A stretch of 64,000 nt of DNA from Paecilomyces variotii (GCA_004022145.1 RCNU01000004.1); one strand, 5' to 3'. Positions 5,617-31,584 are shown, counted from the stretch's first letter. Made by a program: numbers and translations. The notes: generated from the letters alone by a model not told the origin.

Positions 5617-7826
5617 CTCCAATTTGGCCGTTTGTTCCAAGTATTCACGATTGATGGAGGGCTATCGAAGCATGCTCAAATCCGAGTCGTTCCTAAAGAG
5701 TGAGGAGGTATCGTTCCCGTGGCGGTTCGTCGACGAGAGACAATAGAAGTAGTATCCTGCGGAGACCGGCGATAAATGAATGAATGGCAGACTGCGGGCG
5801 GACGCGGACAGAACACGCTTAGAGAGTGAGCAATAGTCGATGTTTTAGATAGCCCCGTCACAGCTGAATGAGGCAAACGAAGGACCCTTGCCCACGAGTC
5901 CCAGGCCGGAGAAATGTCGCGTGCACAGTTACGAGAATAAAAAAGGGACCGGCGAGGCTCTCTTGAGTCTAGGGCCTTGAACCACCGACACGGGTTGTCA
6001 CGAGTGTGGGGGGTTCCCGTTCAGGATCTGTCCGATCTGATGGTTACGAGCCCCTCCGTGGTCACTCTTCTTTTCTTCTGTCTCTCGATACCCAAGTAGA
6101 TAATAATAATGATTAATTATGCTGGCTCAGTCCAGTTCGAGGCCGCGAACGTGGGTTCTATAGTTAACTAACTAGCACTTCCAAAACCGATCGTGGCACT
6201 GCCTTGCAAGGAGCGAGACAATGCACGGGCGACCAGGTGGACAAGGTGGCAGGTTCTGCGACTCTATCTGCTACTTTCTTTGGATCGCCAAGATTGACCA
6301 GATCTTACAGAATCCTCCGTCCACAAACCTTGGGCGACAATGCCACATCCTCGCGCATTCTCTTGAGCTCCTATGGTAATCATAACGATGAACATCCTGC
6401 TTGCCCCAGCTTGCCGATTCCTCTCTTTACGCGTACGGAGTATAAGATCTGGCGTTATTACTTCCCCCGCTCAGAGGATCTGCTTGTCGCGGACTCTTGG
6501 CACAGTGGCCGTTTCAAATTGCTACTTTTGGCGGATAGGTCACTGTTCAGATTGGGCGATCTAATAATAAATCTTATGATGGCGCCGTAGGGGCCGCGTC
6601 AACTCGTCAGAATCCGTGGGCAGAAACCTGACTAGCGCTATCCTGCGCTCCCGGCTCGCCAGGGCACACCAGTGAATTTTCTTTTAAGCATTTAATAGTA
6701 TTATGATTTTCTCATTCCAACACTGGAGCATTCTGCAAGAAAAGCGTACTGAACATAAGCTCTGGACGCGAAAAATTGAGCGAAACAGGAATGCCGGATG
6801 GCCCCGGTTATGTCCACGTGATCTGGAGGAAACAATGGCACTGTGTAACTTACTACTCTTTAAGCTTGAAGCATGAGAACTATAACTCAACGGCTAAAAA
6901 AGCCGCGCCATATCTTTCCCTCTCAGCTGTGCGTTGATTCCAGGGGATCGAAGTCAAGGACAAAAGTAAACACACCTCAATGCCAATCATGTTGACACTG
7001 TATCTTGTCGCAATCAGCCGGATCCAAGCATGTAGCCAGGCACTATGCATTTTTACGCCTCAGGGGTGAGCAGTAACTTAACGGGCGTCTCATCTGATTT
7101 GTCATTCAAACCCAGACGTTTCTTCTCTCGAAATTATCCCCTCATACTCCGTGAAGAAAAAGTCACACGCGGGAAACGGTTCTCGTCGAACATGAGCTCT
7201 ATGTCCTCGTGAATAAAGAAGCGATAAGAAGGCTAAGAAGGCCAAGGAGGCGGAAGTCCTCCAACACACCATCAAAGAGACCAGCCACAAGCCGGAGCTC
7301 AGACTATGACGGCGCCTGGATGTATCCCCGGGAGTTCCAGATTGTCCGCTTAAGCTTTGATCGATCTTATATCTTATCAGCCCAGATCCAGACCCAGAAC
7401 AAGATGAGTTCCGACTCCGCGGTCGGAGACGGGGAAAGACAGGTCCCGGTTCACATGATCGCGGCCGTTGCGCCCCTGGCACAATGTGGGGCTGGAGATT
7501 GGTTCAAGTTGGGTTGTGAGGAGGGCAATAATGTTGAGATGTCGTTCGCCTCGAGGATGAATTAGGACTCTAGATGGTGTCTTTTCGTTCCACTCCTATT
7601 CAATTCTAGACTGCCAGGCGTCGGAGAGGCCCTCAGTTGAGTCTGAACACTTCTGATCCAACGATGCGACGAGGCCGGATCACCGTTTTGAGCTATCCCA
7701 GGATACAACGCTGAATAGTCCCGACACTCGTGCCTTGTTACATCCAATGGGCTTTACCTGATGATTCTACTACGCGTGCTCATGGGTGAGCCGGTACTCT
7801 AGGATTATACCCTATCCAGTGCAAGC

Positions 7827-10228
7827 ATGTATCCATACCCTCTTGCCAAGATGTCAGCAGATCAACAACTTGGCGACGTTGGCACGACCCAGCAGTCAGG
7901 GTCAGCTACGCAGCTTAACCGGTCGTGTGAGTCCTGCAGAGCGCTCAAAGTGCGCTGCTTACCCAACCCGGAAACACCAACCCAATGCCAGAGATGTGCC
8001 AGAACGAAACGAGCATGTATCTTCGTCGCTCCTCAAAAGCGCCGCCCGCGCAAACGGACTGATTCGAGGGTTGCACAGCTGGAGAGGGAGATGCGCGCTA
8101 TGCGCGTCCTCCTGAAAGATAAGCACCTGCCTGTAGATGAGGGCGGCCAAGATGAATACAACGAGGGGGAGGAGAGGAAGGAGGGAACAGACGAGGTCGA
8201 CTTCGGAGCTCAGGCTGGCATGAGCGTTAGAAACATGCATCCTGCTCAAGGCAGTGGCATGGTCCCTCCGAGAACGACAGACTATTCTCCTGTGTCGACA
8301 CTTCCACCTGGTAGTGCTAGTGGTGCTTCCATCGGTGCTCTGTCATTGCCAAATGCGCAGAGTAGCCACTCCTCTGATTTGACAGCAAATGAGGATGTGG
8401 TAGACCGCGGCATAATTGCGATGGAGACAGCGAGCGAGCTTTTATACCTATTTATAAAAGATCTTGCACCCTTGTTTCCGGTTGTTGTGCTACCAACAGA
8501 TACAAACGTGTCGCAGCTGCGGCGATCTAAACCAGTGCTCTTCTTATCCGTGCTTGCGGCGGCGGCCATCGCGGTGGATGCAAAACTGGCCGAGATTCTG
8601 AATCGGGAAATCGTAAGGCTATATGCGGAGCGATTTTTTGTAGAGGCGGAGAAGTCCTTTGAACTGGTTCAGTCATTGTTGATTATGATTGTATTCTCTT
8701 ATCCGCCAAACTCACCTCTGAAAATCCAGATCTACCAATATACTCATATTGCTGCGACGATGGCCCTAGAGATTGGCCTTGCCTCCAAGAAACGGGTGCC
8801 CAAGAAGCCCACATCCGGCAGGACAGGTCGAGACCTGCATGATATATTTGATGAGCATATGGCTGAACAGGCTCGCGCGATCTTAGGATGCTATCATCTC
8901 TGTTCTCAGTAAGCACTTTCCAGGCGAGATTCTAACACAAGATGAAAATTACTGACCATGAAAAAGAATTGGTATGAGAACACGTCGGCCGAACATGTTG
9001 CTGTATAACGATTGGGTGAAGGAATGCGTAAACCATCTAGCAGATTCACCGCACATCATCGATCGGCGCATGGCAACGTGGTTCGAGCTGCAGAAGATGG
9101 TTGATGAAGCAATGACATCTTTCGGCCTGGATGATACTAGCTCCACGGCACCTCTCACTGAATCCCGAGTTCAGGCCGTGCTAAGGTGGTTCGACAATCG
9201 AATGCAGGATTGGAAGAAGACCACCCCTCCGGATCTGCTCACTTGTAAGCCCGTCAAGGATGTTTCAATGGAGACGTACGCTGACTTGCTTTCTGCTAGT
9301 GCCCCTCATGGTCGAGTATCATCACACGAATCTCGCGGTATATGAACTTGCCATTGGTGAAGCATATCGTGACCCTGACGCGATCAAACGGCAACACTAC
9401 ACGCTCCCTCCTCCCGACGAAGAAGGCAGTGGCCAGCAGCAAAACGCCCCTTTAAGTGCGATTCGCATCGATATGACGATGAAGTGGCTGAATGCGGCGC
9501 GTTCCATACTCGATGTATTTCTCGGTTGTGATGCGGATACCATGCGAAAAATGCCTAATCTTATGTATACTCGGATCGTTTTGGGCCTCATGACCCTGAT
9601 GAAAATCTATTATTCAGTGCGATCAGGTGCACTTGGTGAAGTAATTGAGCCTTCAAGTGTCAACCTGGATGTGTACCTCGAGGAGATGACTAGGAGGCTT
9701 ACCGAAGCTAGTGGCGGACAGAAGTACAAGATCCCGAGTCGGTGGTTGTTTGTCGTTGGAGTCAAGGCGCGGGATTGGTACGACCGGTTCCAGCACCGTC
9801 AGTCTCAAAAAGAAGCCGGATTGCAAATCCAGCAGAAGGTTTCTGTGCAGCAGAGCATTCCAACGAACCAGTATTCAATGCCCATGCAGAGCAATTCTCA
9901 ATTCGACCCGACGGTCACGCAGCAGACAGCGGCTTTCAATGTCCAGCCTATGATGCAGCCCCTTCTCCCAGAGAACACAAGATCCTTCAATGCTCATATC
10001 CCGACGACGATTCCATGGCCGTTACCAGATGATAGCTATGTTACTCTCAGTCACCCCCCTGCATACCTACCCGGAGTAATGGCACCGCCAATGACTTTCG
10101 CGTCTTCGAATCCGCTGCCCACTTTCAGCCAGAATCAACCCTTCTTCTCTGCTGGATCAGGTATGGAGATCGATGGATGGATCCCAGATGGTGGCATATT
10201 CGGCGGTCCCAGCTTGCCAGGGTTTTAG
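7827..10228 (+). CDS. Zn(II)2Cys6 fungal transcription factor
   Basis: RSCESCRALKVRC-x8-CQRCARTKRAC binuclear cluster, coiled coil (RVAQLEREM), middle homology region, Q/P-rich C-terminus. Two introns near 8910-8970 and 9245-9300. The start may be the ATG at 7851. Confidence 0.92.
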
Positions 10229-14857: not shown

Positions 14858-15951
14858 CGTTACGGAGAATTATTCGTGTCCGCTCGGCTGAAATGAACTC
14901 CAGGTAAACCGAGTGTACTCGGAACACACATTTGGCTCTTATGGTAGGTGTTGGTCTGGGCCCAGGGCAAAAAGAGCATTTCAAACTATACTGGATTCTT
15001 CTGGTCTTCTGCCAGTCGATTGGTAAGTTGGCCACCGTGTGAAGCTTCTCTGTATTGTATTGGCTGTGGCCATTCCGTCAATTATCGTATTTCGCAATGA
15101 GGCTCCAAAACCTGTCGGCCACCACGGGCCTGCGGGGATATCTTTCATCGCTATTATTGGATGTAGGATGAGTAACAAGTCGCCTTAAGCCATTCAGATC
15201 AGCATCACGCAGCGCCCGGCTGAAGAACAAGTGCGCAGGGCAGGCTAAATACGAGAACGCGGTAGTCTTCTCTCGGCAGGGCGTTGATGTGGGATAGCCG
15301 GAAGGCTGATCCCGACGTCATTGGGGTTTCAATGCTTCGGTCAGCTCAGCCTCACGACTGGATAATACGATTGTCAGAAGCGATGCAGCTCTATGGTAGG
15401 GCCCTCCAGAGCACTGCTTGAGATCTCAGCTTAGATCAGCTGTCTCATGAGGTGAACCCCAAAGTGGACATCGCTCGTCTCTACTCTGCAAATATATATA
15501 ATCAACGAAATGCTTCTCACCAGTGAAATAGCCACCAATGTCATTATGTGACTTCCAACAGCGTTTGAGCTAATACAACGATCAAAAGGTCTTCAGCAGA
15601 TTGGACCATTTCTTACTGACTCACACCTACTCTTCCATACCTATCTCGAACGGCTGCAGATATGTCCGAAGAAGCGCAGTGGATATAACGAACACCAACC
15701 TAAGCCCCCATTACGATGCTCTACTAGTAGAGGCAAGCTTTCTTAGTATTTATATTACGAGACCATCTTCTAACGGAAAGGTCAGCACTACAAGTTCCAC
15801 AACGATAATCCAGAATCGGTGTCTATTTCCTGAAGCAAAATCCCGTCAATTTTTATCCAGAAGAACTATCTTTTGATAGTCGTACAGTACATAATCGATA
15901 CAAAACAGGTTAAGATCTACACAGGACAATGTACCCAAGTGAAAATAAAAT

Positions 15952-18900
15952 CTACTGCCTTACACAAACCACAGGTGCCAATTCATACCCATCATATCGA
16001 CACCGGGAAACTGGCTTCTGTGCATTCTCTGGGTCCGCCAACCAAGCAGCCGCACACAGAAAGTGCTGAAGAATGTATTCCGCCTCCTTCTCAGGCAGGT
16101 CCGGATACATGTGAATCATGTCCATATGCATTACGTTCCTGTCCTTCAAATAGGGCATCCATGACCATGCTGTTGGAGACAGATGGGTCGATCCAATCAT
16201 CTCCAGAGCCTGCTCGGGCTTTACCGTGAATGGCTCTAACAGCCAGTCGAATATTTGGCCATGGAAAAGGTCGCGGACCATAGCAATATCGGCAGTGCCG
16301 TTTTCGAATTGCGCCAGCTTGTCGAAAACTCTACCGATTGGAGCATGTTCACGAACCATCATCTCGTCCTGATCGGCTCGAATTTTGGTCAGCAATTCGA
16401 GCGCAGTTTCGTCTGGTACGACGGGAATGCGTGAAGCCGGGTTCGTGAAGGTCGGTCCATCGATTTCCATCGTGCTTGATGGTGCAGTACTTGTGTCGGC
16501 TTCCAGAGGCCACGACCGGCCGGACTGGAGGTTTAGGAAAATAGCCTCGCGTGCTCCCGAGTGTCGGACATTGACCAAGGCACAGGCAGCCATGGCGATG
16601 ATCGGGGCAGATATGCCAAAAGCCAACCGCATCTGTGTAAGATGAGGAAGGCGAACGTCGGAACTAACGATAGTTCGTGTGTACGCTGCATGCCCGGGCC
16701 CAATGATACCGTCCTCGTGCAGATGACCAAAGTACACCATATGGCCTTCCTCAATCGGGCGCCCAAAGGGCAATATGGCATCTTTAGCAGCAGAAATGCC
16801 CCGGAGCCTGCGGGCGTAAAACTCGACCGACTCGTCGGCCTCCGGAGTCGACCGATATGCATCATAGGCAGCGGCGAAATGACGGTAAGGTTGCCATGTT
16901 AACATAGGCTTCCCATCTAAAAGATGATCTAGATCCTGGAACCAGCGTCCTAGCAGTGCCCCATCGAAAATAACATGATGCATGTGCAGAATAAATCCGC
17001 AGATGGATGTCCCTCGCACAGGTAGAACGGTGAGTTTGCAGAGAGGTCCAGTCCTCGAATCAACGCAGTCCTCCGGTTGGTAGTCTATCACTGCTTTTAT
17101 GTTCTCGACTTCGGGCCCATGGATTATTTGCTGTTCAAGCCAAGATTCAAGGGGGCGCATGACTGCATAGACTGGCCTTTCGTTGTCAACAGTCGCAACC
17201 ATGCTGCGCAGTAACCCGTGTCGCCGCAGCCATGTCTCTAAGACGGCCGTTACTTGATCTGCAGTCAAAGGCCGTCGGATGATGAAAGGTATCCGGAAAT
17301 CCCAGGCACCAGGGAACGGCCGGTTCACGCCCATGAGTCCGAGGATGTCCGTCATTAGGACAAGCTCCTCGATATCATCTGCGTCGATTCCCAACTGCGA
17401 AGCAGCTATTTCCTTCTTGATATCGACAATGATGGCGCTGGTGGTCGATTGAGGTGACACAGGAAGGCTCAACTGTGCTGTTCCTTTCTTACCCAATAGC
17501 TGAGCTTGCTTCTGGACGGTATCCGCAGCCAACAAATCCTTCAGGGTGAGCTTCCATCCCTTCTTCTTCGCCAGGTTAAGGAACTGGATCTGCATCGTGC
17601 TGTCTGTGAACGTGCGAATTGGCATGTCAGGCTTGATATTCTCAGGCTCTACTCCAGAGATAGCAGACCAACAGGCCGTGAGTTCCTCACTGATGTCAAC
17701 TCTCAGTGTGGTGTCAACTCTTGAAGGAATATTGGTTGTTTGTATGTCTGATGTGGCGGGTGTACCAGAAATTTGCACACGAGACTCCGGTGTCGTATGG
17801 TTCTCTATATGACCCACCACCCATTCCTTGATTATATTTTTCTTAATCTTGCCGGAGGTAGTCGTTGGGTATTTCTCGCGGCCCAGATCATTTTGAAGGT
17901 GCAGGATCAGTTTCGGCGCGAACGACCGGCCCAGGGCTCGTATCACAGCGGACTGAAGCTCGTTGAAGAAAGCCTTGCTTTTCTCGTCGCGTGTCTCGAT
18001 GACAGCTACTGGGACTTCACCCGCAATATCATCGGGTGCTCCAACCACTACCGCACTTTTAACTCCCGGCTGACCGCATAAGCATTGTTCGATCTTCAAC
18101 GGGGAGATATTTTCACCTCCCCGAATGATCAAGTCCTTGTATCTCCCCAGTAGATAGACACAACCCTCCTCATCCATATATCCACGATCTCCAGTCGCAA
18201 ACCAAGGCACGGCTCCCTCACGGTAGCAGCTGGAATTATCTTCCTTACTACCGTCAAAATATCCATCAAAGACCGGATAACCTCCTTGGTGGAGCTCGCC
18301 GATTTCACCGCAACGCAAGGGTTCTCTGCTACCCGGAGCACAAATGCGAAGATGAGATCCCCCTTTCGCAGTCCCTAGACAGACATCGTCACCGTCCTCA
18401 GCGTTTGTAATTCTCGGGTCGTTCACATCCATCGGGTTGAATAACGTCGCAACACCTTCAGTCGTCCCGTATCCCGCAATGATCTGTTTCGCACCGAGCG
18501 ACTTGCACGTCCACAGGACATCCGGCGTGATAGGGGCTCCTCCAAGACAGATCCCGAACGGAGAGGGGAGCTTCTTGTCAGCGGTCGTTGAGTAGGTATG
18601 CATAGCGTAGACCATTGTCGGTACGCAGGCCATATACACCTTGGATCCTGACCCGAGTGCCTCGAAGGATGCCGTGACGTTAAATTCAGGACTTGGAAAC
18701 ACGACAGTTCCACCGGATACCCAAAATGTCAAGATAAACGCAACACTAAAAATGTGGAAAGAGGGCAAGTGCTGGCAGAGAGTACTTTCTGGCCCTATCG
18801 ACCAGTGATCGGCAAGTCCCAACGCCGGAGTGACGATGGTAACCGATGTATGAGGGCAGACTTTCGGGCGAGATGTTGTACCACTGGTACATAGCATGAG

Positions 18901-19524
18901 GATGGTATCATCGCGCTTTAACGAAGAAATCGAATTTGTTGTAGGAGAAGGCCCAGTCATGAGTGCAGCTAGAGTCGTCCAGCCGCGTGGCAGAGAGCCA
19001 TCTACTTCTCCTACTACTCCTGTAGAGAGAACGCATTTTACTCGTATCTGTGGCATTAATTCCGTCTCAAGGATATTCTCAATCTGGCGGGCAAGGCTGA
19101 GATTCGACACAAAGATTGACTCAGCCCAAACTTTTCTCAAAAGATACACCGCATCGGATGGTTGATTGAGGGTTCGAGGATCCAGCGGGACAAAGTGGCA
19201 TCCCAGCCGCGCACTCGCAAGAAACAAGATCGCCCATTCAATTTCATTAAACAAAAAGGTGGCGATACGATTCCCTCGCCGTACGCCCGCAGCAGCAAGT
19301 CGATGAGCTAGGCGGATACTCCCATCGCGGAGTTGAGAATATGTCCAGCGAAGAGTACCCATGCCGAGGTGATCTTTCTGATGGAGCGACATGACAGCCG
19401 TGCGATCAGGATGTCGTTGCGCGACCCGGTCGAACACAGTGACCAGATCATCTGCTGGTTCGCGTTGTCGCTCATCTTTTGATTGCGCAACAAGGCGCTG
19501 GATGGTTGTGGTCTCAATCGCCAT
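15952..19524 (-). CDS. NRPS-like enzyme, A(acyl-CoA-ligase-type)-T-C, 1190 aa, intronless
   Basis: LCTSGTTSRPK, HLPSFHIF, GYGTTEG, FATGDRG, GRYKDLIIRGGENISP, PTTTSGKIKK. T domain with FTDS; C domain HMHHVIFDG. Confidence 0.88.
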   Translation of the reverse strand: MAIETTTIQRLVAQSKDERQREPADDLVTVFDRVAQRHPDRTAVMSLHQKDHLGMGTLRWTYSQLRDGSIRLAHRLAAAGVRRGNRIATFLFNEIEWAILFLASARLGCHFVPLDPRTLNQPSDAVYLLRKVWAESIFVSNLSLARQIENILETELMPQIRVKCVLSTGVVGEVDGSLPRGWTTLAALMTGPSPTTNSISSLKRDDTILMLCTSGTTSRPKVCPHTSVTIVTPALGLADHWSIGPESTLCQHLPSFHIFSVAFILTFWVSGGTVVFPSPEFNVTASFEALGSGSKVYMACVPTMVYAMHTYSTTADKKLPSPFGICLGGAPITPDVLWTCKSLGAKQIIAGYGTTEGVATLFNPMDVNDPRITNAEDGDDVCLGTAKGGSHLRICAPGSREPLRCGEIGELHQGGYPVFDGYFDGSKEDNSSCYREGAVPWFATGDRGYMDEEGCVYLLGRYKDLIIRGGENISPLKIEQCLCGQPGVKSAVVVGAPDDIAGEVPVAVIETRDEKSKAFFNELQSAVIRALGRSFAPKLILHLQNDLGREKYPTTTSGKIKKNIIKEWVVGHIENHTTPESRVQISGTPATSDIQTTNIPSRVDTTLRVDISEELTACWSAISGVEPENIKPDMPIRTFTDSTMQIQFLNLAKKKGWKLTLKDLLAADTVQKQAQLLGKKGTAQLSLPVSPQSTTSAIIVDIKKEIAASQLGIDADDIEELVLMTDILGLMGVNRPFPGAWDFRIPFIIRRPLTADQVTAVLETWLRRHGLLRSMVATVDNERPVYAVMRPLESWLEQQIIHGPEVENIKAVIDYQPEDCVDSRTGPLCKLTVLPVRGTSICGFILHMHHVIFDGALLGRWFQDLDHLLDGKPMLTWQPYRHFAAAYDAYRSTPEADESVEFYARRLRGISAAKDAILPFGRPIEEGHMVYFGHLHEDGIIGPGHAAYTRTIVSSDVRLPHLTQMRLAFGISAPIIAMAACALVNVRHSGAREAIFLNLQSGRSWPLEADTSTAPSSTMEIDGPTFTNPASRIPVVPDETALELLTKIRADQDEMMVREHAPIGRVFDKLAQFENGTADIAMVRDLFHGQIFDWLLEPFTVKPEQALEMIGSTHLSPTAWSWMPYLKDRNVMHMDMIHMYPDLPEKEAEYILQHFLCAAAWLADPENAQKPVSRCRYDGYELAPVVCVRQ

Positions 19525-19546
19525 AATCCAGTATACTGGAAGACCA

Positions 19547-19580
19547 AGTTAGCCCTCGTGTCCAGTTAGCCCTCGTGTCC
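19547..19580. repeat. Perfect 17-bp tandem duplication (AGTTAGCCCTCGTGTCC)x2
   Basis: Read directly: copies at 19547-19563 and 19564-19580, just upstream of the NRPS-like ATG. Confidence 0.9.
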
Positions 19581-21718
19581 AAGTGATGGGACATATACAC
19601 ACCTATGGCAGGATAACGTTGAAACCAAATGATTTCCTTTTACGGTATCATCAGCAAAGGCGTTGTACGATAACGCGTTAGGCACTTATAAGGGACACGA
19701 CAAGACACGCCTAACCACGCGATAGGTGTCAGGTCCGGGGAAAAAGGGGGGGCGCTGGAGAATCTAGAGAGTTGATAATGGTTTGAGGCTAGAGCCCTAG
19801 GATTTCTCTCTCCATCGCGATTCCTCCCCCTACCTCGTATTGCATGACAGTGGAGAATGTGGACTAATATTCCTATCTTAGCTGTACTGCCCCCCTGCTC
19901 TTGATGAAGTTTCCGCGCGTTTCAACGGACCAAGGATCAGGTAAGAGATGATCAGGTGTTCGAGATTCCGCTATTGGTGCGGATCGCAGATACAGGGGCA
20001 AAGGACCAATGTTAAAAGCCCCTGGATAGATCGCTGTCAGGTTCAGAGCGGTGTGTTGATTGAACAAGTGGATTCTATTCAGCCATGGTTTTAGCATATT
20101 TGCTTAAATTAAGTTCGTCAGCTTGTCAAAGAGTCTGGCAATCCTATCTAGTATCTAGTTATTCGCCGCATTTGGACCTATCCGAAACATTCAACATGCG
20201 TTACAATGTTCTTTCGAGCTATTGTCAGACTTGACAGGTATGCGACCCAAATCTATGATGCATCGATATGCCTCTCTGTTTTCTGGACCTGTAGAGTTCG
20301 TCCGCGCTAAAACTGGGCGTCTATTTGACATGTCCCTTATGTAAAAAAGGTTCATTAGGGGAAAGCACGCGAGGAAACCAGGAGTATTATTATAAAGAAA
20401 GAATGTCAATTGGAGGTAGACATTCTGTTTGTAACAATTATACAACACCGGAATGTCGATAGATAAAAGCATAAACAAGGACCTTGCAGCTATAAATCAA
20501 TGGTTGGTAAAGATTGGCGAGATATTTAACTTCAAAGCGGGAATTATTTAATACTAGATATACTCAACAGATGATTTCCTGTTTCTGTATTACCATTTCA
20601 GCGAACTTTGCGCGTGAAATATATACCGTCACGTGATCGAATTTACCCTATCTCATCCCTTGCGACCATTATTGTTTCCTGTCAGTCAATAATACAATAG
20701 CTACTTGCAATGTTATTAACAAAGCAATTATATCTCTAACACCTCAACTTTTCATTAAATACGTGTAAACCACAGAGGCGCCAGAGGCCATAGTTTTTTT
20801 ACATCATGTGTGGAATGCGTAAACGGAATACGGCCGATCTTTGCGCTCTTGACGCAAGGAGACAGTTGATCGACATAACCACGGAGCAATCATTTCACAG
20901 CACAATGTTTTCCTAATCTCTAAGAATGGCTTTCGCGTCAAATCCAGTGTAATGTGGCGTTAGATACGCCGTAGATCTGTCCAATTGATGATCAACGAGA
21001 CATCCCGCCCGGCCATTTACTCCAGGACGAACATGGCGAACTTCTAGAGTACCTACTCAGTATGATAGTTCACAAAAGACCCACGTGGTCGGCAAGCTTA
21101 AGTCAATTGCCTTACTTGACCCGCCCAGTAGTTGACTGCATGGTTCAATCCCTCGTTGCCTCATCCCAGCTCTAACATACCATCCCTTGCCTGCGGAGTG
21201 CATTGCATGTTGTCGCTCGTCTACGCTGTATTGACTGGAAGCTAAACTAATATTATACAGGCCTTCTTACGGATTACTTCGGCGCAGATGCCACATTGAC
21301 CCGTATCTACTCACCAGCACATGTCAATTTTCATTTATCATATTCGTGGTATCGATAACGATAGGCTATATGTAGTCCAAATACCCTAGTGAATAGAGAG
21401 GCGAGAGACGGAACAGGAAAAGAGCCGCTTTTTCTTGCCCAAGTCCCCGAGCCTTGTATTTGTTTCAAAAATACCAAGCTGAACTAAGAAGAATAATAGC
21501 GTTTGACAAACCAAATAATATTGAGGTTTCATCTGATGGTATCGTGGCATTGAGAACATAAGAACTCTACTAGACAGATGCACGGAATGCTCTGAGCACA
21601 CACCAACTACATGCAGGATATGACTGAGGTATGCCACTGCATACACATACAACTGCCTGGAGCTCGCTTTCAGTAAGGTCTCACCGATATTTCCCAACAG
21701 GAAAAGATCCCAACCGAA

Positions 21719-22813
21719 ATGGGGCTGAACACGACTACCGATTACCCGAAGAAGTTTCGGATCCTGATGATTCATGGTGAGTGATATCCTACTTATCATC
21801 CCACAATCGTTGCTAACAACTAACCCTGCATCCTTACAGGATTCGCTGCTTCGGGACAGAAGTTCGAAGCAAAAGCAAGACCTATATCAGACCGCATAAA
21901 CGAATTGCTCACTCCAAAAATCATCGATGAGTTCGCTGGAGGTATTGAGTTCTTATACCCCGATGCGCCTATTGTCCTAGAATGCCCAATTGGACTGGAA
22001 GAGAGGCGCGATGACGATGCAGATGACAAGGATAAGAATGGTCAAAGCACAATCGAAGAAGAACCTAGGGACCTCTCGAATCGTGCATGGTGGTATGGCC
22101 GAGATACAATCCACGCTTATAAAGGCCTCGAAGATTCGCTCTCATCTGTGGCTACATTTATCCGCAATCGGCCCATCCATGGAGTCATTGGATTCTCTCA
22201 AGGTGCTGCAATGTCGGGAATGATTACTTCTATCCTTGACTGTCGCGACAATCCCTCAAAGGTGGCCGCCTTACGAGGGCAAGGTCTTCCAGTGGACGAC
22301 TTCCTCAATCTCCCCGGCCAGCACCCGTTGAGGTTCTTCATCGGGTGTGGAGGATATCAAGGAACACTGAAATATTACGGGAGTCTGTACGATTGGCCGA
22401 TTCAGACACCAAGTTGCCATACAATCGCCGATATAGATGGTGTTGTGGAGGATTACCGGACCATAAACCTGGCACGTTGTTTCTCCTCCGCAAAAATGGT
22501 GCACTACTTCGGTTCTCATTTCGTCCCAAGAGATCGTGCTACTGTACAAACTCTCGCGTGCTTTGCCGTGAAGAATTCTTGCAGTGGCCCCGCGTCAGAT
22601 GGTGTACCATCGGTTGCTCCTTCACTGAGTCAACCGGCAAAGAGAAATGCCAGCAAAGATAGGGATGATAATAGACTGGGCTATACAAACTCACAAAAGT
22701 CACTTCAGTCGGCTAAGAGAAGAAAGATATTCACTCTCCGCAGCCGACGAAAACAAGTTGTATCCACACGCCAGATTGTCCCCGCATTTAACCACTCATG
22801 CTTCGTTGTCTAA
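21719..22813 (+). CDS. FSH1/DUF341 serine hydrolase (LovG-like family)
   Basis: MGLNTTTDYPKKFRILMIHG|FAASGQKF (intron ~21777-21839), YPDAP, RAWW, GVIGFSQGA nucleophile elbow, DGVV and GSHFVP completing a Ser-Asp-His triad. Confidence 0.87.
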
Positions 22814-23054
22814 CGATAGGGCACATGGGCGATGAAGCTGTTAGAGGGGAATTGGGCATTAGATCTGCGAGTTAACATGAGGATATCCAGCTTATGTCTG
22901 TTTATGAGGAGTATAAAGTTGTTATATGTTGTATCTAGCATTTATTGTTACTATTGTTCTCCTTCCCAGGGGATTTACTATCGAGTTTGAACCTTGAAAA
23001 TTGTAAACGAGTATTTTTTTTTTTCTTATGCATCCAATGAGATGTATCTAGACC

Positions 23055-24424
23055 TCATGAATGTCCTTGTATAGCTCTAGGAACATATAGTTCTTCCAAG
23101 TACCGCTCTTCCTCCTCTGAAAGCTCCTTGCCCCTAGCATCCAGAGCCTCCTTTATGCGGTCGCTTGAACTGAACCCAATAATGGGAGCCGTGACCCTTC
23201 GGTTAAGCCAGGCCAAGCTCACATGGCTCATTGGCCATCCTCGAATTGTAGCAATCTCCCTTACCCTTGTTACAATACCATGTAGGTCCTGGTCACCATT
23301 GTCATATAGTGATCCGTTAGTGCTAAATGCCGCCCGTTTTGAAAATGTGCTCTGTGTTGGGTCACGGGCCAATCTTCCTGATGCCAACGGAGCCCACTGT
23401 TGAGGGAATAGGTAATTAGCACTTGTAGAACGGCGTGTTGTCAGACTTATCGGGAGACATTACAGGAATAAGGCCGATGCCTGTGAGATTGCAAAATGGG
23501 TTCATCTCGCGCTCTTCTTCCCGATATAATAAATTGTAGTGATTTTGCATTGAAATGAATTTGGTCCATCCGTGTTTCTCTGCGGTGTGCTGCAAGGTGG
23601 CGAATTGATATGTCCACATTGAACTGGCTCCAATGTAGCGGATGCACCCTGACCTTACTAGATCATCTAAGGCGCGCATTGTTTCCTCTGGTGGAACCGT
23701 TGGGTCGTATCGATGGATTTGAAGAACGTCGATATAGCTGGTGTTAAGACGCTTAAGAGATCCCTCGACGGCTTTGAAAATAGCGCTTCGTGATAGGCCT
23801 TGATACGAGTTAAAGTCTACGCGAATGATGGATAAAGGGAGAGATCTTTTTTATCGGGGTAAAACAGAAAAGAATTACATACCCCATTGGTTCACATAGT
23901 CCTTGCTTGAATCTGCCAACGCATGATGCATGGTTACCTTAGAACCAGGATCGTAGTTTTCAGAATCACAGACGACCCTATAGCACTTTGTCATGAGAAC
24001 AACCTTCTCACGAGGGATCTTGTGTGTCTGAAGGGCCTTGCCCATGACCCTCTCGGATTCGCCATTAGAATAGACATTCGCCGTGTCCCACTTGCATTAT
24101 ATTAATTTATTGCCCTAAAGGGAAAGTCTAAGTGCAAACATACCGTGTTTATTCCGCTATCATAAGCTGTTTTCAAAAGATCAAGTGCCTATCAACCAGT
24201 AAGCAGAAGCAATCACATGAGAGAACAACAGAAGGAAATACATGATCTTCGTCTAGTACCCATGGGAGCCAGCGAGAACTACCCAAGTTCATACCGCCAA
24301 GGATTGGATTTGACACTCGCAGACCGGAGTTCCCAAGTCTTCGATACTCCGCCTTCGAGCGTGCCACAGACTCGCGCAGACATTGGGGCGCTTTTGCTAG
24401 GTTTTCTAGCACTATCCTGCTCAT
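23055..24424 (-). CDS. Aldo-keto reductase, multi-exon
   Basis: [76 protein letters not shown]. Catalytic D/Y/K/H residues are visible. Confidence 0.92.
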
Positions 24425-25600
24425 GTTGGACGGAATATATGATACATTTGATGCCAGAATTCGGCGATGAATCACTGTCCTTCGGATTCACCACAGATAA
24501 CCCGAAATTTATGTTTAACCACCTCTGTCGGACAATCGACCCGAATCTTATGCTAAATGAGGGGAACTCGAACACGCGCAGATTGACACAGCTAGGACAC
24601 AGCCTAGTGTGTCCAGATTACTGTAACAACTAGTAAATCCCGACTGCAGCTGCGGAGTTGTGGCGGCTTGATTGTGTCTGTGGCTTAGCTACCCCGGCGG
24701 ACTTCATGATCACTGCGATATGGCTCCTCCTCCTTAGCCCTTCATCTTAACCCGTGAAAATCTATGCGCTTAATATTACCAATATCCTTAGCCAAGGATT
24801 GCTGTACAGGTAATTATTAATCATTCCGTGTCAGAACACCTAAAGCCCCCTTCCAGCTCTTAGTTCGAACCCCTTCCTTCGCCAAGGTTCAGTATGTAAA
24901 GTACGTCTAGTAAGTTACCAGTGGTGTTACGATACAAATACCCCCATCCGACATTGTATGTAGAAAAGTATCAAGACATGCTAAAGTCCTCACGATACAC
25001 GATTAGATTCACATTTTCTTATAAGCTGCCTTTTTCTTCTTGGCCTCACTTGTCTTTGTAAGCCTGCTTTCCCAAAATCATTGAACGAAGATAAAAATAT
25101 CCATTCCTCGTCGATGACGCATCCACTCAAGGGATAGATAGCTATCACGGATTGCCGATCCCTTTTTGAAACGAACATGCTGTTTACAAATGATGCACCA
25201 ATCTATTGCGCTGTGGGTCAATCATATGATAGACACGAGAGACTGACCACGGCTGAGTGTCACCCCTTCTTTGTCCTAGTGAAAATATTCGAGTTTTCAA
25301 GCGCCCTCGGTCAAGTTTGACGTTATTACGAACTTTGGTCAGAACTTTGATCTGAGCTTGCAAACGCTATATAATAACAAGACCATAACCCTTTTTCGCG
25401 CGTGGCAGATAAATGAGACCAACAATTTGGACCTAGCCACCCGGCAGCGGTAGGTCGGAATGGATATGTTGTCACAATTGATGAGGTGGACGGATTTGCA
25501 GGTATGATCGAGACCGAGAGACATTGAATTGCGATGAATCTGAGTACCTAATATATCGGATATGTAGTTGCCAATCGATTTAAAAAGGATATTCCGAACC

Positions 25601-28600
25601 ATGCCTGTCAATGATGCAGAAACGGTGACATACTGGCGAGAAGCTTTAGCCAGCTCAGAATATGTACCGTATCCGACTCTACCGCCGTTTGTCAATCAGC
25701 CAGTGGCAGATAAGCTGGTAGAGTACCAGTTCCCACGACCCAAGGAGCCCTCAAATAATATTACTGTACCGATTCTAGCCCGTGCTGCATGGGCCATAAT
25801 CGCCAGTCGGCTGACCGACTCGGACGATGTTGTGTTTTGTGCGACAGCATCCGCAACAAACGCGCCGGTTCTGGTGCGCGTGAAGTTGACCGACAATCAG
25901 AAGGTTTTGAAATACCTGAGATTAGTACAGCAGCAGGAACCCTATATGGTCACACTTGAGCAGGCAGGTCTACATGGAATCACCCAAGAATCTTCCGATT
26001 TTCAGAAAGCGTCCATGCCACAAACACTGCTTATCGTCCAACCGCAAAAGGACGGCAGAGAGATTGGCAACAAATTGCATCAGTCCGACGCGTACGGTCT
26101 GACAATTCATCTAGAGCTTTCTAGTGCTCAGATTAATGCTACCGCCGCCTTTGATCAGAGGGTGATTGAGCCATGGCTTGCGATTAAGCTACTTCAACGC
26201 CTTGAATTCGTGATGCAACAGCTCAGTGATGCCAGTCCTGAGCTGGAACTGAAGGATGTCGGGATCGTGCCTCCACTAGACGTGCGACAGATATGGGAAT
26301 GGAACAGTGAGGTTCCGCCAGTGGTTGAGCGATGTATCCACGACATTATCCTGGAACACGCTTCAGCGCAACCCGATGCGCCAGCAGTCTGCGCATGGGA
26401 CGGTGAGCTGACATATCGCGAGCTAGACAACCTCTCAAACCAGCTTGCCTGCCGTCTTGTTGAACTCGGTGTTGGCCCCGAGAAGGTCGTGCCGTTGTGC
26501 TCGGAGAAGTCGATGTGGACCGTCGTGGCGTGGGTTGCCGTTCTCAAAGCCGGTGGTGCTTTCGTCCTCCTAGACCCTACGCTGCCTGAGGGTCGAATCC
26601 GAAGCATTTGCCAGCAGGTGCATGCGGCAGTTGGTATAACGTCCGCCTCCTGCGAATCCAGGCTGTCTCCATTCACGCAACACATTGTCGTGCTGGCAAG
26701 GCAGGCGCTTGGGTCGCAAAATCACCAAACGTTGTCACAGATGCCAAAAGCGACCCCGAGAAACGCTGCGTATATCATCTTCACGTCTGGAAGTACAGGA
26801 GAGCCGAAAGGTTGTGTCATTGAGCATCAATCTTACTGCTCGGCAGCGTTCGGCCATGGAGCAGTACTGGGCATGAACAAAGACATGCGCGCTTTACAGT
26901 TTGGCTCCTACAATTTTGCTGGGGCGATCATGGAAATGCTGATGACCCTAATCTACGGCGGCTGTATCTGTATACCATCTGAAGAGGAGAGGGCCAGCAA
27001 CTTGGCGCAGGTAATTGGGAAGCTGAACGCCAATTGGGCCTTTCTGACTTCCACTGTACTCTCGCTCCTTCACCCAGAGAATGCCCCATCCCTGAAGACG
27101 ATCTGCGTTGGTGGCGAGCCCATCCGAAGTTCCCAGATCAGGGAATGGGCGCCAAAGGTTCACCTGCGACAGACGTACGGCAGTGCAGAGACCGCTGCTG
27201 TTGTCGCATCAGCACGGTTATATGCATCGTCAGCGGTTACCAGCGTTGGAAAAGCGACTACCGCCAGATGTTGGCTTGTTGACCCTGCCAATGTCAACCG
27301 CCTCGTGCCTGTGGGATCTCCTGGTGAGGTTTTGTTCGAAGGGCCGGTAATTGGACGCGAGTACATAGGGCAACCGGAGAAGTCTTCTGCGACCTTCATC
27401 GATGCACCATCCTGGAGATCTGAGCTGGGACGCTGCTCAAAATCGTCTCGCTTCTATCGGACAGGTGATCTTGCAGCATACAGAAGCGATGGATCCATTG
27501 AACTCCTGGGGAGGAAGGATACCCAGGTCAAACTACGGGGCCAGCGCATCGAGCTTGGGGAGATTGAACACCAAGCACGATTATCATCACCAGATGTGAG
27601 GGACGTCGCTGTAGAGCTGACTGCCCTCAATAATGGCATGGACAAAGGTCCACAATTAATAGGATTCCTGGTAATACGAGAGGCTCACGCAAAAGTAAAC
27701 GGCAGCGGTTTGCACAATGATGAACATACTCGCACTGTCATCCAAAGTGTCCGGGCCCGACTGGAGAGCGTGCTACCGCATTATATGGTCCCATCAGTGT
27801 TCGTTCCAATCCCAGCGCTTCCGTTGACAGCATCCGGAAAGACGCACCGAAAGAAACTGCGGGAAATGGGGTCTGCAATGTCAAAGGAAGAGCTGGAGGT
27901 GTTACGAACGAAGGCAGAAATGCGGCAGCCAACAACACTGGTTGAGAAGCGTTTGCAGGAGATTTGGTCCCAAGTGCTCAAGGTAGATGCGGCTACCATT
28001 GGACTTGATCACAGTTTCTTCAGTCTCGGTGGCGACTCAATCACAGCAATGAAGGTTGTGGGTGAGGCTCGCAAGGTCGGCATTAATCTGATGGTGGCAG
28101 ACATCTTCCGGCAAGATACTGTTGCAGGATTGGCTCATCAGCAGTCGCTGAACAGCGCACAAGTCAGTCAACAATTCGATGGTGTTGTTCTCGTTGAACC
28201 TGCCGTCAAAAAGATTCTTCTCGAGGAGATTGACTCTCTTGGAACTGGTCACCGTTCTACAGATATCGCAGATATCTACCCTCTGACGAGCGTTCAAGAA
28301 ACGCTTGTGGCTGCCAGTTTGGCGTGTGGAAAGTTGGCCGACTATTTCTACCTTGATCTGGATGACAAAATCAGTATTCCAGCCCTCGAAAGTGGCTGTA
28401 GCAGAGCTCTGGAGAAGTTTCCAATCCTCCGCGCATGCTTTTTCCAGCTTCAAGGAAAACTCTGGCAAGCTATTCTCAATCAACTCAGTCCGACTCTTCG
28501 CGTGGAAGATGTCAGCGGTGATATGGATGAATCCTTCAGGGACATTTGCCTCAGAGACGGAAAAACTCTTTCGCCAACTCAGCCTTTGGTCGCATTTATC

Positions 28601-29509
28601 CTACTTAAGCACAACGTGAAAGGCATGAGACTGGTTCTTCGAATGTCGCATGCTCAGTACGATGCTTTTAGCGCGCCAGTCGTTTTTCAATCGCTCTTTG
28701 ACGACGACAAAGTTTCTACTGCGCCAAGCTTCTTCAACTTCATGTCTTACACTTCTGGCCGACGTCCACAGTCAATTGCATACTGGAGCAAGTTGTTAGA
28801 AGGATCGCGTCTCACTGTCGTTGGGCCCAGACTTCCTCCTGGCAATGCCAAAGATCCTGTGCCGGAGGCGATTATAGCTAAAGCGGAAACTCATTTTCTG
28901 CAGCGTCCCGACAAGATTACTGCGGCAACTCTAGTCAGGACTGCGTGGGCTGTACTGCTGGCACATATCAGTGGTGACACTGACATTGTCTACTGTCAGG
29001 TAGTCAGCGGTCGCAACTCTGCAATGCCAGGAGTGGAAAAGATAGTGGGATGCTGCCTCAATATTGTACCTACACGAGTTGTTCTCTCCTCTTCCCCGAC
29101 GGTAGCTGAGCTGGTTCATGCCGTCCAAGAGCAGTTACTCGAGATGGGAGAAGCAGACACGCTCGGTTTCAGGGACATCGTCGAAAATTGTACCGACTGG
29201 CCAGCGACCACGAACTTCGAGTCAATGATCCATCACCGAGATATCGACGAACACCCTGAGATACAGACATCAGCGGGCGTATCACGGATGCAGGCCTTTG
29301 ATAACCCTGTCACATCCCCATGTATTTTCGTGGTATCGTACGGACGAGGCGACAAAATTAGTATCGAAATTTGCGCAAATACTCACATCATGACCATGGA
29401 GACAGCTGATGCGCTAGCTTGTGGTCTTGTTCAAATTATTGAGAAGGTAGTTAGTTCCATGCACATGCCTGTGCAGTCATTGATGGACGGTGTTGGGTTT
29501 GTTATATAA
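25601..29509 (+). CDS. Monomodular NRPS: partial C - A - T - terminal C
   Basis: N-terminal half C domain (YWREAL, AAWAII), LTYRELD, LKAGGAFVLLDP, YIIFTSGSTGEPKG, YRTGDL, GRKDTQVKLRGQRIELGEIE, LPHYMVP, T domain FFSLGGDSITAM, terminal C domain SHAQYDA. First ATG at 25601. Confidence 0.93.
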   Translation: MPVNDAETVTYWREALASSEYVPYPTLPPFVNQPVADKLVEYQFPRPKEPSNNITVPILARAAWAIIASRLTDSDDVVFCATASATNAPVLVRVKLTDNQKVLKYLRLVQQQEPYMVTLEQAGLHGITQESSDFQKASMPQTLLIVQPQKDGREIGNKLHQSDAYGLTIHLELSSAQINATAAFDQRVIEPWLAIKLLQRLEFVMQQLSDASPELELKDVGIVPPLDVRQIWEWNSEVPPVVERCIHDIILEHASAQPDAPAVCAWDGELTYRELDNLSNQLACRLVELGVGPEKVVPLCSEKSMWTVVAWVAVLKAGGAFVLLDPTLPEGRIRSICQQVHAAVGITSASCESRLSPFTQHIVVLARQALGSQNHQTLSQMPKATPRNAAYIIFTSGSTGEPKGCVIEHQSYCSAAFGHGAVLGMNKDMRALQFGSYNFAGAIMEMLMTLIYGGCICIPSEEERASNLAQVIGKLNANWAFLTSTVLSLLHPENAPSLKTICVGGEPIRSSQIREWAPKVHLRQTYGSAETAAVVASARLYASSAVTSVGKATTARCWLVDPANVNRLVPVGSPGEVLFEGPVIGREYIGQPEKSSATFIDAPSWRSELGRCSKSSRFYRTGDLAAYRSDGSIELLGRKDTQVKLRGQRIELGEIEHQARLSSPDVRDVAVELTALNNGMDKGPQLIGFLVIREAHAKVNGSGLHNDEHTRTVIQSVRARLESVLPHYMVPSVFVPIPALPLTASGKTHRKKLREMGSAMSKEELEVLRTKAEMRQPTTLVEKRLQEIWSQVLKVDAATIGLDHSFFSLGGDSITAMKVVGEARKVGINLMVADIFRQDTVAGLAHQQSLNSAQVSQQFDGVVLVEPAVKKILLEEIDSLGTGHRSTDIADIYPLTSVQETLVAASLACGKLADYFYLDLDDKISIPALESGCSRALEKFPILRACFFQLQGKLWQAILNQLSPTLRVEDVSGDMDESFRDICLRDGKTLSPTQPLVAFILLKHNVKGMRLVLRMSHAQYDAFSAPVVFQSLFDDDKVSTAPSFFNFMSYTSGRRPQSIAYWSKLLEGSRLTVVGPRLPPGNAKDPVPEAIIAKAETHFLQRPDKITAATLVRTAWAVLLAHISGDTDIVYCQVVSGRNSAMPGVEKIVGCCLNIVPTRVVLSSSPTVAELVHAVQEQLLEMGEADTLGFRDIVENCTDWPATTNFESMIHHRDIDEHPEIQTSAGVSRMQAFDNPVTSPCIFVVSYGRGDKISIEICANTHIMTMETADALACGLVQIIEKVVSSMHMPVQSLMDGVGFVI

Positions 29510-31584
29510 TTGCAGAGCTTCGATGTATGTATATTAGCACCTGTCAGGGGCAGCCAACGAATGGCCGAGCTTCAATCCATAAACGGAGTTAATAATTGTG
29601 AAACTCTCAAACCAGAACGCTCTATTTCATAGTTTAAGCAAGCTTAAAGCCGCAAGCTTCCATTCAACGACAAGAAATGTATTTGTGCCAAAATTAGTCC
29701 TTATATGGGACTTCTTGGATGACTTCATGGCCGTAGCTTGATTGGGCGCACACGTTGGGCGATACTTTGGTCGGCAGGTAGAGAAAAGTTGTTGAAAAAG
29801 AAAAAGCAGAAAGAAACGTTTCTTTTGCTGTTGACTCCTGCTTGTATTCTCCTCGTCCATGGTCGAATGTATTGGATCATCCATTGGCTAGGATCTGAGG
29901 GCACTGACGTAACTCTAGATAGATGGCGGAGGTGAACGTATCCCAAGAGATTCCTATTCAACGAATTCTCAGTATACCGGCCGAAAGGGCTTCGAAACAT
30001 CGATCTTGCTTGGTCTTCATATACGCCACGGAGCTTATAAAAGCTCACAAGGCGGAGAAGATCAACCGTATACGCCCCAAATAGCTTCGAAGAGCAAACT
30101 AAGACTAATATCGCATCAGGTAGTTCGCTCCGAAAGCCTTGAACTTTGCCCATTCTACTCTCTGAACTTTGGAGCATAAGTAACATTTTAGCACCGTGCA
30201 TCAAGCATTAGCTGTCACCCACGAAGGTTCACGATTCAGTACTCGCTTAAATATCTCGTTGTTGCACTTGGGCTTCCATGATCGAGACTCAAAGCTGCTG
30301 GGCTTCTGGAGGATTGACTGCATGGTCAATAGACGGTATTAAAGGCGGATGAAGCGCAATCAGAGTGACCTGCACGTGAATTAGGTTCATTGTTATCTTG
30401 ATACCTTGGCCATGTTCATTTCCACATCAACTTACTGCTCAGTTGTTCTGAGTCACAGTATCTCTAAACATTAGCTAGTAGTAATTGTCGACATCCTCAG
30501 AAAGAAAGACTTCATTCACAAGCCTAAATAAGAAATGAATCACCGAATGTCAACTGCCAACACCGCTGTTAACGGCAGAAATTGAGGTGCATGTCAGGCT
30601 CCCAGAGATGCTGTATATTGAGTCTCCCTTTGAACTATTGACAGATAAGTTTGGAGTTAAGATGAACTAGGAGGATGACGACTAGACTGGGCGTATCACT
30701 TAGCCTTTTCTAGATGGAGTCTGTTCAATTACTCTCAAAGCGGTCCTCAGCAAGAATAAGAGATCGATCACATACGACAGAAAAGAAGAGTTGAGGAAGA
30801 TTTAGGTCAAGACCAGTTACAATGGCTACCAGAGTGTTGACTAGACTTCTCCAAAGGGGCCATCTCGAGGGCGCCTCGAAAGGCCACGAAATCTCGAACA
30901 TCAAGATGGGAAATCACGTCTAGAATAGAGGTATCTCCAGAATCTGAATGTCTGTGCAAGAAGTGCAAATAATAATTAGCTGGAAGTTGGGTCTTCTGAG
31001 ACAATGTCTGAGCAGTCAAGCAGGTCAGTTGTTACCCCGCCAGTGCGAGGCGATCAGACCAGCCGCCCCTTATCTAAACGCGGTCTTAGCGTCCGGCCTA
31101 CCAAGGAGAGTCGGTTTACCGCTTTCGGGCAACTCCTCTGGCTTGCTTCCTCGAACCACACATCACGCAAGCTGTCAATTCATTAACGCTCTGTCTGGAG
31201 AGGCTTCGATGCCAATGCGGAGCCCAGAAGACTGCTTGAACGATCTCTGTCGGTGACGCCGGCGTCAGATTCTGCAGAATCAAGTCTGCGGAGCTCTCCT
31301 CCTGCACCGTGTCACGCTACTCCGTACCCCGTCCTTTGACGATCGACAACAGCCCACCGGGGAGCATCGGACGAGAATTACTACAATCACTGAGCGGGGA
31401 ATAGAGGAGAACTATTATACTGTGAGGTGAACAAAACCTGCGGGGGCCGTACCATCCGCGCGGATGGTTGTTCCCTCACATCCCCCGAATTCAACGGACG
31501 GCGCATGCGAGAACTTGCGAGGAAGAACGAGAGACATTGGGAAAGAGTGAAAGCAGGTAACTGGTGACGCTGCTACAATCGATA

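Follow-up and report, generated by a model that had tools for sequence, protein, structure and literature searches.

Four linked genes of Paecilomyces variotii for two single-module synthetases, a reductase and a hydrolase: a candidate pathway to an acylated hydroxy acid

Can a fungal condensation (C) domain join two non-amino acids in trans? This question is raised by a four-gene locus of Paecilomyces variotii, a mould frequent in food and fermentation whose secondary-metabolite clusters are few (PMC6300479). The window analyzed, a stretch of 64,000 nucleotides on contig C34 of a 30.1-Mb assembly, carries at positions 15952-29509 (13.6 kb) the genes of two single-module synthetases, named E1 and E2 here, of an FSH1-family serine hydrolase (FSH1) and of an aldo-keto reductase (AKR). 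All four genes are intact, catalytic residues are retained in each product, and the nearest database proteins, 98-99% identical, come from P. variotii. The four genes probably serve to couple a hydroxy acid with a second carboxylic acid by means of peptide-synthetase enzymes that take no ordinary amino acid. An initial annotation made from the DNA alone had described four genes in two divergent pairs among unrelated genes, with no polyketide synthase (PKS) in the window, and this description was borne out. Pfam matches and gene models gave the same places and orientations, E1 (minus strand) diverging from FSH1 (plus) and AKR (minus) from E2 (plus), with FSH1 and AKR convergent, and the Pfam labels of the flanking genes fit unrelated functions.

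Two synthetases and their accessory enzymes

E1 consists of adenylation (A), thiolation (T) and C domains. Its A domain, at about residues 30-570, contains HLPSFHIFS and the A10 lysine in TSGKIKK, whereas the T domain has Ser642 in the non-canonical motif FTDS and the C domain has HHVIFDG at residues 849-855. In PDB sequence searches the A domain comes closest to malonyl-, fatty-acyl-, feruloyl- and oxalyl-CoA ligases. An acyl-CoA ligase model gives it 231 bits, and the amino-acid adenylation model TIGR01733, with a cut-off of 317, gives it 133; by score and by nearest relatives it falls outside the amino-acid-activating domains. Residues S642, H850, D854, K559 and K562 are invariant in all 29 aligned relatives, and the T-domain serine and HHxxxD of carrier-based A-T-C synthetases are present. 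The top fold matches of the AlphaFold model (mean pLDDT 79) are modules of nonribosomal peptide synthetases (NRPS) and CoA ligases, amide-bond synthetases and aryl-acid ligases also being found; these matches are generic (14-24% identity) and do not indicate the substrate, and structure-atlas searches returned automatic names only. Because a CoA-ligase-like A domain is combined with an invariant carrier serine, HHxxxD and A10 lysine and with an NRPS-module fold, E1 is a CoA-ligase-type enzyme predicted to load its own carrier. The family has 61 relatives in several ascomycete classes, none of them characterized in the literature searched, most subscription journals and the MIBiG database being outside the scope of that search. 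The distant lichen (Dirinaria) relative P0041 is fused to a transferase domain (PF02458), two relatives in A. tanneri (P0027 and P0030) have consecutive locus tags, and distant relatives at L017:2191-13537 and in L020 adjoin a P450 gene and lie near a Diels-Alderase-like gene.

E2 is of a different kind, with an N-terminal half-C domain lacking HHxxxDG, an A domain, a T domain (GGDS) and a terminal C domain (SHAQYD). The half-C corresponds to the C-terminal half of a C domain, and in the full C domains of three relatives it aligns only downstream of HHxxxDG. The A domain scores 340 bits on TIGR01733, above the cut-off of 317, and is of NRPS type; with its A, GGDS-bearing T and C domains E2 has the make-up of a single-module fungal NRPS, and no epimerase-type (E) or methyltransferase (MT) domain was detected in it. 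SHAQYD is the terminal C-domain motif in many of the multi-module NRPS matches. The pocket code is AGMFCGTAVK, with Ala at position 235 instead of the Asp of alpha-amino-acid domains, and loss of Asp235 marks non-amino substrates (PMC12914822; PMC10967133). The code AGMFCGTAV was found in 39 of 193 A-domain matches, whereas 122 begin with Asp, and orphan synthetases with such a pocket number in the dozens among Eurotiales and Xylariaceae. In a tree of 57 domains from 38 chosen proteins, the Ala-235 domains (19 of the 57) form one clade with a support of 0.99, whose nearest multi-module member is the NRPS fragment P0109, on a contig of the same size as that of an AKR match. Among the A domains of the same genome that were scored (loci L002-L008 and L089-L091), E2 is the only one without Asp235; the other pockets begin with Asp.

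The AKR retains the tetrad Asp78, Tyr83, Lys111 and His174. The AKR portion of an AKR-decarboxylase gene model from Metarhizium shares 71% identity with it and an Amphichorda felina protein labelled DtxS3 shares 76%, compared with 52-62% for the shorter general type; the Metarhizium and Amphichorda references are known by source label and gene-model content and not as assayed enzymes. A tree built from 41 of the 120 AKR matches places the cluster and Xylariaceae AKRs in one clade (support 1.0), joined with the Metarhizium and Amphichorda proteins at 0.81. DtxS3, DetxB and IsdB are proposed suppliers of hydroxyisocaproate (PMC8233208; PMC6737921), and AMT2 is needed for hydroxyisovalerate (PMC5550700). 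Linkage of an AKR to an NRPS with a non-Asp235 A domain occurs in the window and, by accessions, in five further Eurotiales species and Pyrenophora. This probable kinship with DtxS3-type reductases, together with co-travel with E2, is the strongest support for a hydroxy-acid substrate. Because the AKR has this probable kinship, Asp235 is lost and the Ala-235 clade has a multi-module member that may be AKR-linked, E2 resembles a module for a hydroxy acid that was excised from a depsipeptide synthetase. The initial annotation had foreseen one enzyme for an acyl or aryl acid, another for a hydroxy or other non-alpha-amino acid and an AKR comparable to DtxS3, in agreement with the CoA-ligase matches and bit scores of E1, with Ala235 in AGMFCGTAVK of E2, and with the grouping and co-travel of the AKR. 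In the trees, Xylariaceae E2 domains nest among Eurotiales ones and the cluster AKRs nest among Sordariomycete AKRs. Horizontal transfer of an AKR and E2 cassette, in either direction, is possible.

FSH1 has the catalytic triad Ser139 (in GFSQG), Asp219 and His246 in an FSH1 fold. LovG is a hydrolase paired with a PKS, and FSH1/LovG-type hydrolases usually lie beside a PKS, whereas here the gene lies beside that of an A-T-C enzyme. None of the ketosynthase matches in the genome, of which there are at least 22, is on contig C34, so that FSH1 departs from LovG-type hydrolases in lacking a clustered reducing PKS. FSH-type hydrolases are found in the PKS clusters of fusaric acid (FUB4) and fusarin (Fus5) (PMC10967133). 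Elsewhere in the genome, at 557-567 kb of contig C86 (L092 and L093), a stand-alone reducing PKS (KS-AT-DH-ER-KR-ACP matches) and an FSH1 gene form a divergent pair, followed downstream by a 2OG-Fe(II) oxygenase gene; together they constitute a second orphan cluster.

Linkage in other fungi and transcription

Synteny was read from accession numbers and same-size contigs, not from gene maps, among the 61 E1 matches and 120 of 1875 close E2 matches listed. E1 and E2 are spaced by 2-4 accession numbers in five other Eurotiales genomes or species, namely P. variotii No. 5 (GAD97153/156), P. lecythidis (E1 KAL1874629, FSH1 ..628, E2 ..627, FSH1 being between E1 and E2), P. canariense (E1 KAJ5157771, AKR ..770, E2 ..767), one of two strains of P. 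brasilianum (E1 CEJ60649, AKR ..648, E2 ..646) and A. turcosus (E1 RLL96530, AKR ..531, E2 ..533; second strain RHZ51501/500/498). In P. canariense, P. brasilianum and A. turcosus the AKR is directly beside E1, followed by one or two genes and then E2. Since the order differs between genera, E1-AKR-x-E2 in Penicillium and Aspergillus versus E1-FSH1-AKR-E2 in the window, the E1-AKR-E2 linkage has outlived rearrangement. Close E1 orthologues (58-83% identity) form 12 clusters; in 8 of these an E2 orthologue lies on the contig of E1, as judged by accession for 5 and solely by same-size contigs for 3. Absence of conserved linkage would have spoken against the cluster proposed in the initial annotation, and such linkage was found in Penicillium and Aspergillus species. 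In P. variotii itself the genome carries a single E1, some five FSH1 genes and some 14 AKR loci; given these copy numbers and the recurrence of E1-AKR-E2 in other genera, the gene grouping exceeds chance.

The same comparisons indicate that the locus looks like two cassettes, AKR and E2 for a 2-hydroxy acid and E1 and FSH1 for an acyl group. The AKR is adjacent to E2, by accessions, in P. odoratum and P. lividum without a close E1, it is 2 accessions from E2 in A. viridinutans and 4 from an E2 relative (53% A-domain identity) in Pyrenophora, and 6 of 21 Xylariaceae-type E2 matches have an AKR match on a same-size contig (cluster representatives only, so that misses say little). E1 adjoins an FSH1 gene in two other loci, P. 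lecythidis and the 10.7-kb locus L009; in the latter FSH1 is 0.8 kb upstream of a 42% E1 relative, beside an amino-acid permease gene, and E2 and AKR are not there. This pairing pattern strongly supports a predicted partnership of AKR with E2 and modestly supports that of E1 with FSH1.

All four genes are transcribed and spliced. Transcript evidence came from 4 of 24 sequencing runs (X1, X2, X6 and X7), all as contigs, which allows neither a ranking of the genes nor a test of co-regulation. X7 is an RNA library from a separate study, whereas X2 was taken as RNA by guess, and X1, being without intron joints, was treated as DNA. In X2, splice joints are seen for E1, for FSH1 and for each of the four AKR introns, and E2 is covered minus its 5' joint; X7 has those of E1, three AKR introns and the E2 5' intron. 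Contigs of X6 cover E1 and not FSH1 or AKR, a gap that is uninformative.

Proposed pathway and competing explanations

Several known systems resemble parts of the locus. As in destruxin and isaridin (DtxS1 with DtxS3, DetxA with DetxB, IsdA with IsdB) and AM-toxin (AMT1 with AMT2) biosynthesis, where an AKR encoded next to an NRPS provides the 2-hydroxy acid on which a C domain then builds an ester (PMC8233208; PMC5550700), an AKR gene adjoins that of an NRPS here, and an ester is predicted. Unlike these 4-6-module synthetases of cyclic depsipeptides, E2 is a lone module with a half-C and a CoA-ligase-type partner; DetxA and IsdA are six-module NRPSs with E and N-methyltransferase domains (PMC8233208), and E2 has one module. 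In ergot fungi LPSB, a one-module A-T-C protein like E1, hands a non-alpha-amino acid to a separate synthetase, LPSC or LPSA (PMC8902786), but its partners load alpha-amino acids and form amides, whereas no ergoline genes are present here and the E1 A domain is CoA-ligase-like. The diketomorpholine pathways adx and aau (AauA with AauB) likewise combine a reductase with an NRPS whose non-Asp235 A domain takes L-phenyllactate, and form one ester (PMC12914822). Nevertheless, AauA is one two-module protein (A-T-C-A-T-CT) in which the first A domain takes tryptophan, A2 has Gly235 and C1 has Arg, and its cluster includes a prenyltransferase (DMATS) gene; none of these was seen here, where separate single modules are present, neither of amino-acid type, and no DMATS match was found among the 37 open reading frames of the window that were scanned. 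FlvI (PMC8902786) and the vioprolide system (PMC8949500) provide C domains that move a carrier-bound acyl group to a hydroxyl. FlvI differs in acylating a free terpene or polyketide from the same cluster, no such scaffold enzyme being present here, and the vioprolide line, in which a fatty acyl group activated by a FAAL is joined to glycerate as an ester, is bacterial and multi-module (PMC8949500). Orphan clusters are common in fungi; in this one each part has a precedent, the combination is absent from the literature searched, and the architecture is unusual and conserved. The passages of the P. variotii genome paper (PMC6300479) and viriditoxin paper (PMC6600887) that were available do not mention the cluster.

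A four-gene pathway is tentatively preferred, in which the hydroxy-acid cassette of AKR and E2 would cooperate with the acyl cassette of E1 and FSH1 to yield an O-acyl hydroxy acid. From its kinship and linkage, the AKR would reduce a 2-keto acid supplied by amino-acid metabolism to an L-2-hydroxy acid; a branched or aromatic substrate, for example 2-ketoisocaproate, is the most likely. E2 would then adenylate this acid and hold it on the T domain, the half-C being presumed incapable of condensation, and E1 would adenylate a non-amino carboxylic acid (fatty, aryl or dicarboxylic) and load it onto its own T domain instead of CoA. In the least supported step, the HHxxxDG C domain of E1 may use this acyl group to acylate, in trans, the 2-OH of the acid held by E2, forming an ester; transfer from E1 to E2 is favored because the E2 half-C cannot condense and the domain of E1 is the only complete HHxxxDG domain. 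Water, an alcohol or an amine could receive the product from the terminal C domain of E2, and the role of FSH1 could be to release it or to clear mis-loaded carriers. Taken further, the locus might encode a nitrogen-free 'nonribosomal ester' line of two stand-alone non-amino-acid NRPS modules cooperating in trans, a possible but rather doubtful extension, in which an excised depsipeptide hydroxy-acid module and its reductase would have been joined to a member of a widespread, undescribed CoA-ligase-T-C family. If this were true, it would give a first function to the E1 family with its 61 relatives and a substrate to the AGMFCGTAVK pocket. The product is perhaps easily found, because P. variotii has few secondary-metabolite clusters; the cluster is small, intact and transcribed, and natural partial versions exist, AKR with E2 and E1 with FSH1.

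A number of observations weigh against a joint product. As for substrate, AGMFCGTAVK matched no characterized or assayed domain in a full-text literature search, and the wider DtxS3-like AKR group is poorly supported (0.57). Like AauA-A2, compared above, further characterized hydroxy-acid A domains have Gly235, whereas E2 has Ala. The motif was also absent from 12 of the 15 supplements of PMC4869207, whose available text passages have no pocket data. As for linkage, 4 of the 12 close E1 clusters (A. pseudoviridinutans, Arthroderma uncinatum, P. taxi and one 6.7-kb contig) have no linked E2 among the matches listed, one P. brasilianum strain carries E1 and E2 on separate contigs, E1-like proteins of 39% identity in P. 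odoratum and P. lividum are on other contigs than E2 and AKR, no Xylariaceae protein is among the 61 E1 matches, and the one Ustulina AKR looked up is unlinked to the Ustulina E2. As for FSH1, none of 4 matches looked up, out of 150 representatives listed, maps to the AKR-E2 gap in Penicillium or Aspergillus (one is the P. lecythidis cluster gene and one is from A. brasiliensis), and among 80 metagenome loci carrying an E1 relative a single one had FSH1, these loci being 80 of 337 confirmed stretches, many short or distant, with E1 relatives of 25-42% identity only and no close orthologue. The two intergenic regions share 21 9-mers against 17.6 expected (P ~0.27), no more than chance would give, and the RNA contigs carry no power to show co-regulation of the four genes. 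What stands of the single four-gene set of the initial annotation is a conserved and transcribed cluster; its unity is in question, since the two cassettes are also found apart and linkage of FSH1 to both synthetases is confirmed only within the genus Paecilomyces.

The occurrence of the cassettes apart is the main doubt about a single joint product, and the two synthetases may make separate products. In its full form this explanation places two independent two-gene pathways at one locus, whose synthetases exchange no intermediates, AKR and E2 passing a hydroxy acid to a free acceptor or dimerizing it, and E1 and FSH1 acylating a free alcohol or amine. For the latter, a likeness may be sought in FlvI-type esterifying modules and, in fused form, in the fumonisin proteins FUM10 and FUM14, which reportedly move a carrier-bound acyl group to a hydroxyl, FUM14 acylating a free scaffold made in the same cluster. 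That P. odoratum, P. lividum and Xylariaceae have E2 and AKR but no close E1, that L009 has E1 and FSH1 but neither E2 nor AKR, and that 4 of the 12 close E1 clusters have no listed E2 fits such independence, as do a C domain in each synthetase and the fusion of the distant relative P0041 to an acyltransferase domain. It is nevertheless unlikely, for in Paecilomyces, Penicillium and Aspergillus alike E1, AKR and E2 stay within four genes, although identity is about 60% and the order has changed, and in Penicillium and Aspergillus the AKR adjoins E1.

The order of transfer could also be reversed, with E2 as an LPSB-like starter. Its terminal C domain would transfer the hydroxyacyl moiety to a non-alpha-amino acid that carries an amine and is held on E1 (an aminobenzoate or a beta- or omega-amino acid), the E1 C domain then cyclizing the product onto the 2-OH or releasing an amide. 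LPSB, an A-T-C protein, does donate to partner synthetases (PMC8902786), amino-acid permease genes occur near E1 relatives in L009 and L030, and amide-bond synthetases and aryl-acid ligases are among the E1 fold matches. However, the E1 pocket segment is like that of plain acyl-CoA ligases, the cluster has neither an unusual-amino-acid gene nor a permease by Pfam, and SHAQYD is typical of terminal C domains in many multi-module matches, which makes this order distinctly improbable. That the cluster has already been characterized under another name is very unlikely; the literature searched is thin in subscription journals, the usual venue of fungal pathway work, but it held no such cluster, and pathway-specific names appeared only as homology labels among the 61 E1 matches and the 120 of 1875 E2 matches listed.

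The slimmest chance is left to a tailoring arm of a distant polyketide, in which FSH1 would free an acid, E1 re-activate it and E2 load a gamma-aminobutyric acid (GABA)-like omega-amino acid to give a pyrrolidinone of the type of variotin, which is said to come from P. variotii, with analogues from A. viridinutans, both of which carry E2 and AKR. E2 being alone in lacking Asp235 among the A domains scored in its genome, and FSH-type hydrolases occurring in the fusaric acid and fusarin PKS clusters (PMC10967133), would suit it, but contig C34 has no ketosynthase match, the stand-alone reducing PKS on C86 is paired with a separate divergent FSH1 gene, the tight AKR-E2 linkage points to a hydroxy acid and not GABA, and 'variotin' was found neither in the papers listed by one literature search nor in the available passages of the P. 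variotii papers PMC6300479 and PMC6600887.

Gene models and neighboring features

Table 1. Positions of the four genes and associated features in the window
Feature	Position	Strand	Description
E1	15952..19524	-	A-T-C synthetase, single module, 1190 aa; coding part without intron
E1 5' untranslated region (UTR) intron	19536..19602	-	GT..AG; RNA-contig joint 19535/19603 in runs X2 and X7
E1/FSH1 divergent intergenic region	19603..21620	.	AT-rich
FSH1-family serine hydrolase	21719..22813	+	343 aa; coding exons 21719-21776 and 21840-22813; joints in X2
AKR	23055..24424	-	370 aa; exons 24424-24242, 24188-24144, 24090-23883, 23798-23464 and 23396-23055
AKR/E2 divergent intergenic region	24425..25459	.	
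E2	25460..29509	+	Single-module NRPS, 1327 aa; exon 1 25460-25501, intron 25502-25567

The gene models (Table 1) agree with Pfam, which assigns AMP-binding, PP-binding and Condensation to both synthetases, all above cut-off in E2, the last one being under the cut-off in E1 (27 vs 30.6 bits), and PF03959 (E 1e-35) and PF00248 to FSH1 and AKR, respectively. RNA contigs set the third AKR intron at 23799-23882 and the first exon of E2 at 14 codons from the ATG at 25460. FSH1 has an extra intron 5' of its ATG (joint 21626/21699). The spliced E1 5' UTR has no upstream in-frame ATG in a translation check, and its intron contains a unit of some 16 bases present twice, head to tail.

Further transcript features were observed around the synthetase genes. 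A GT..AG intron spliced inside E1 on the plus strand (16884-16932) in an X6 contig suggests a spliced antisense transcript in one run, and just 3' of the E1 stop a 53-base skip (15731-15783) with non-canonical ends AG..TC occurs in X2 and X6. A fifth gene at 29.5-31.5 kb was considered and rejected, short open reading frames only being present, the longest of 160 aa without a Pfam match. A spliced minus-strand transcript without a convincing open reading frame lies there (29500-31500), between E2 and a DUF726 gene, with an intron near 30369-30434 (X2) and a poly-T end near 30419 (X7). To the left, 5.7 kb from E1, a Zn2Cys6-like transcription factor gene with weak Pfam matches (7803-10228, plus strand) is a possible regulator; a CorA gene and one gene without a Pfam match lie between it and E1. 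At the right end of the window, a large gene on the plus strand (55151-61571) encodes a NACHT-like NTPase with TPR repeats, resembling fungal NLR proteins.

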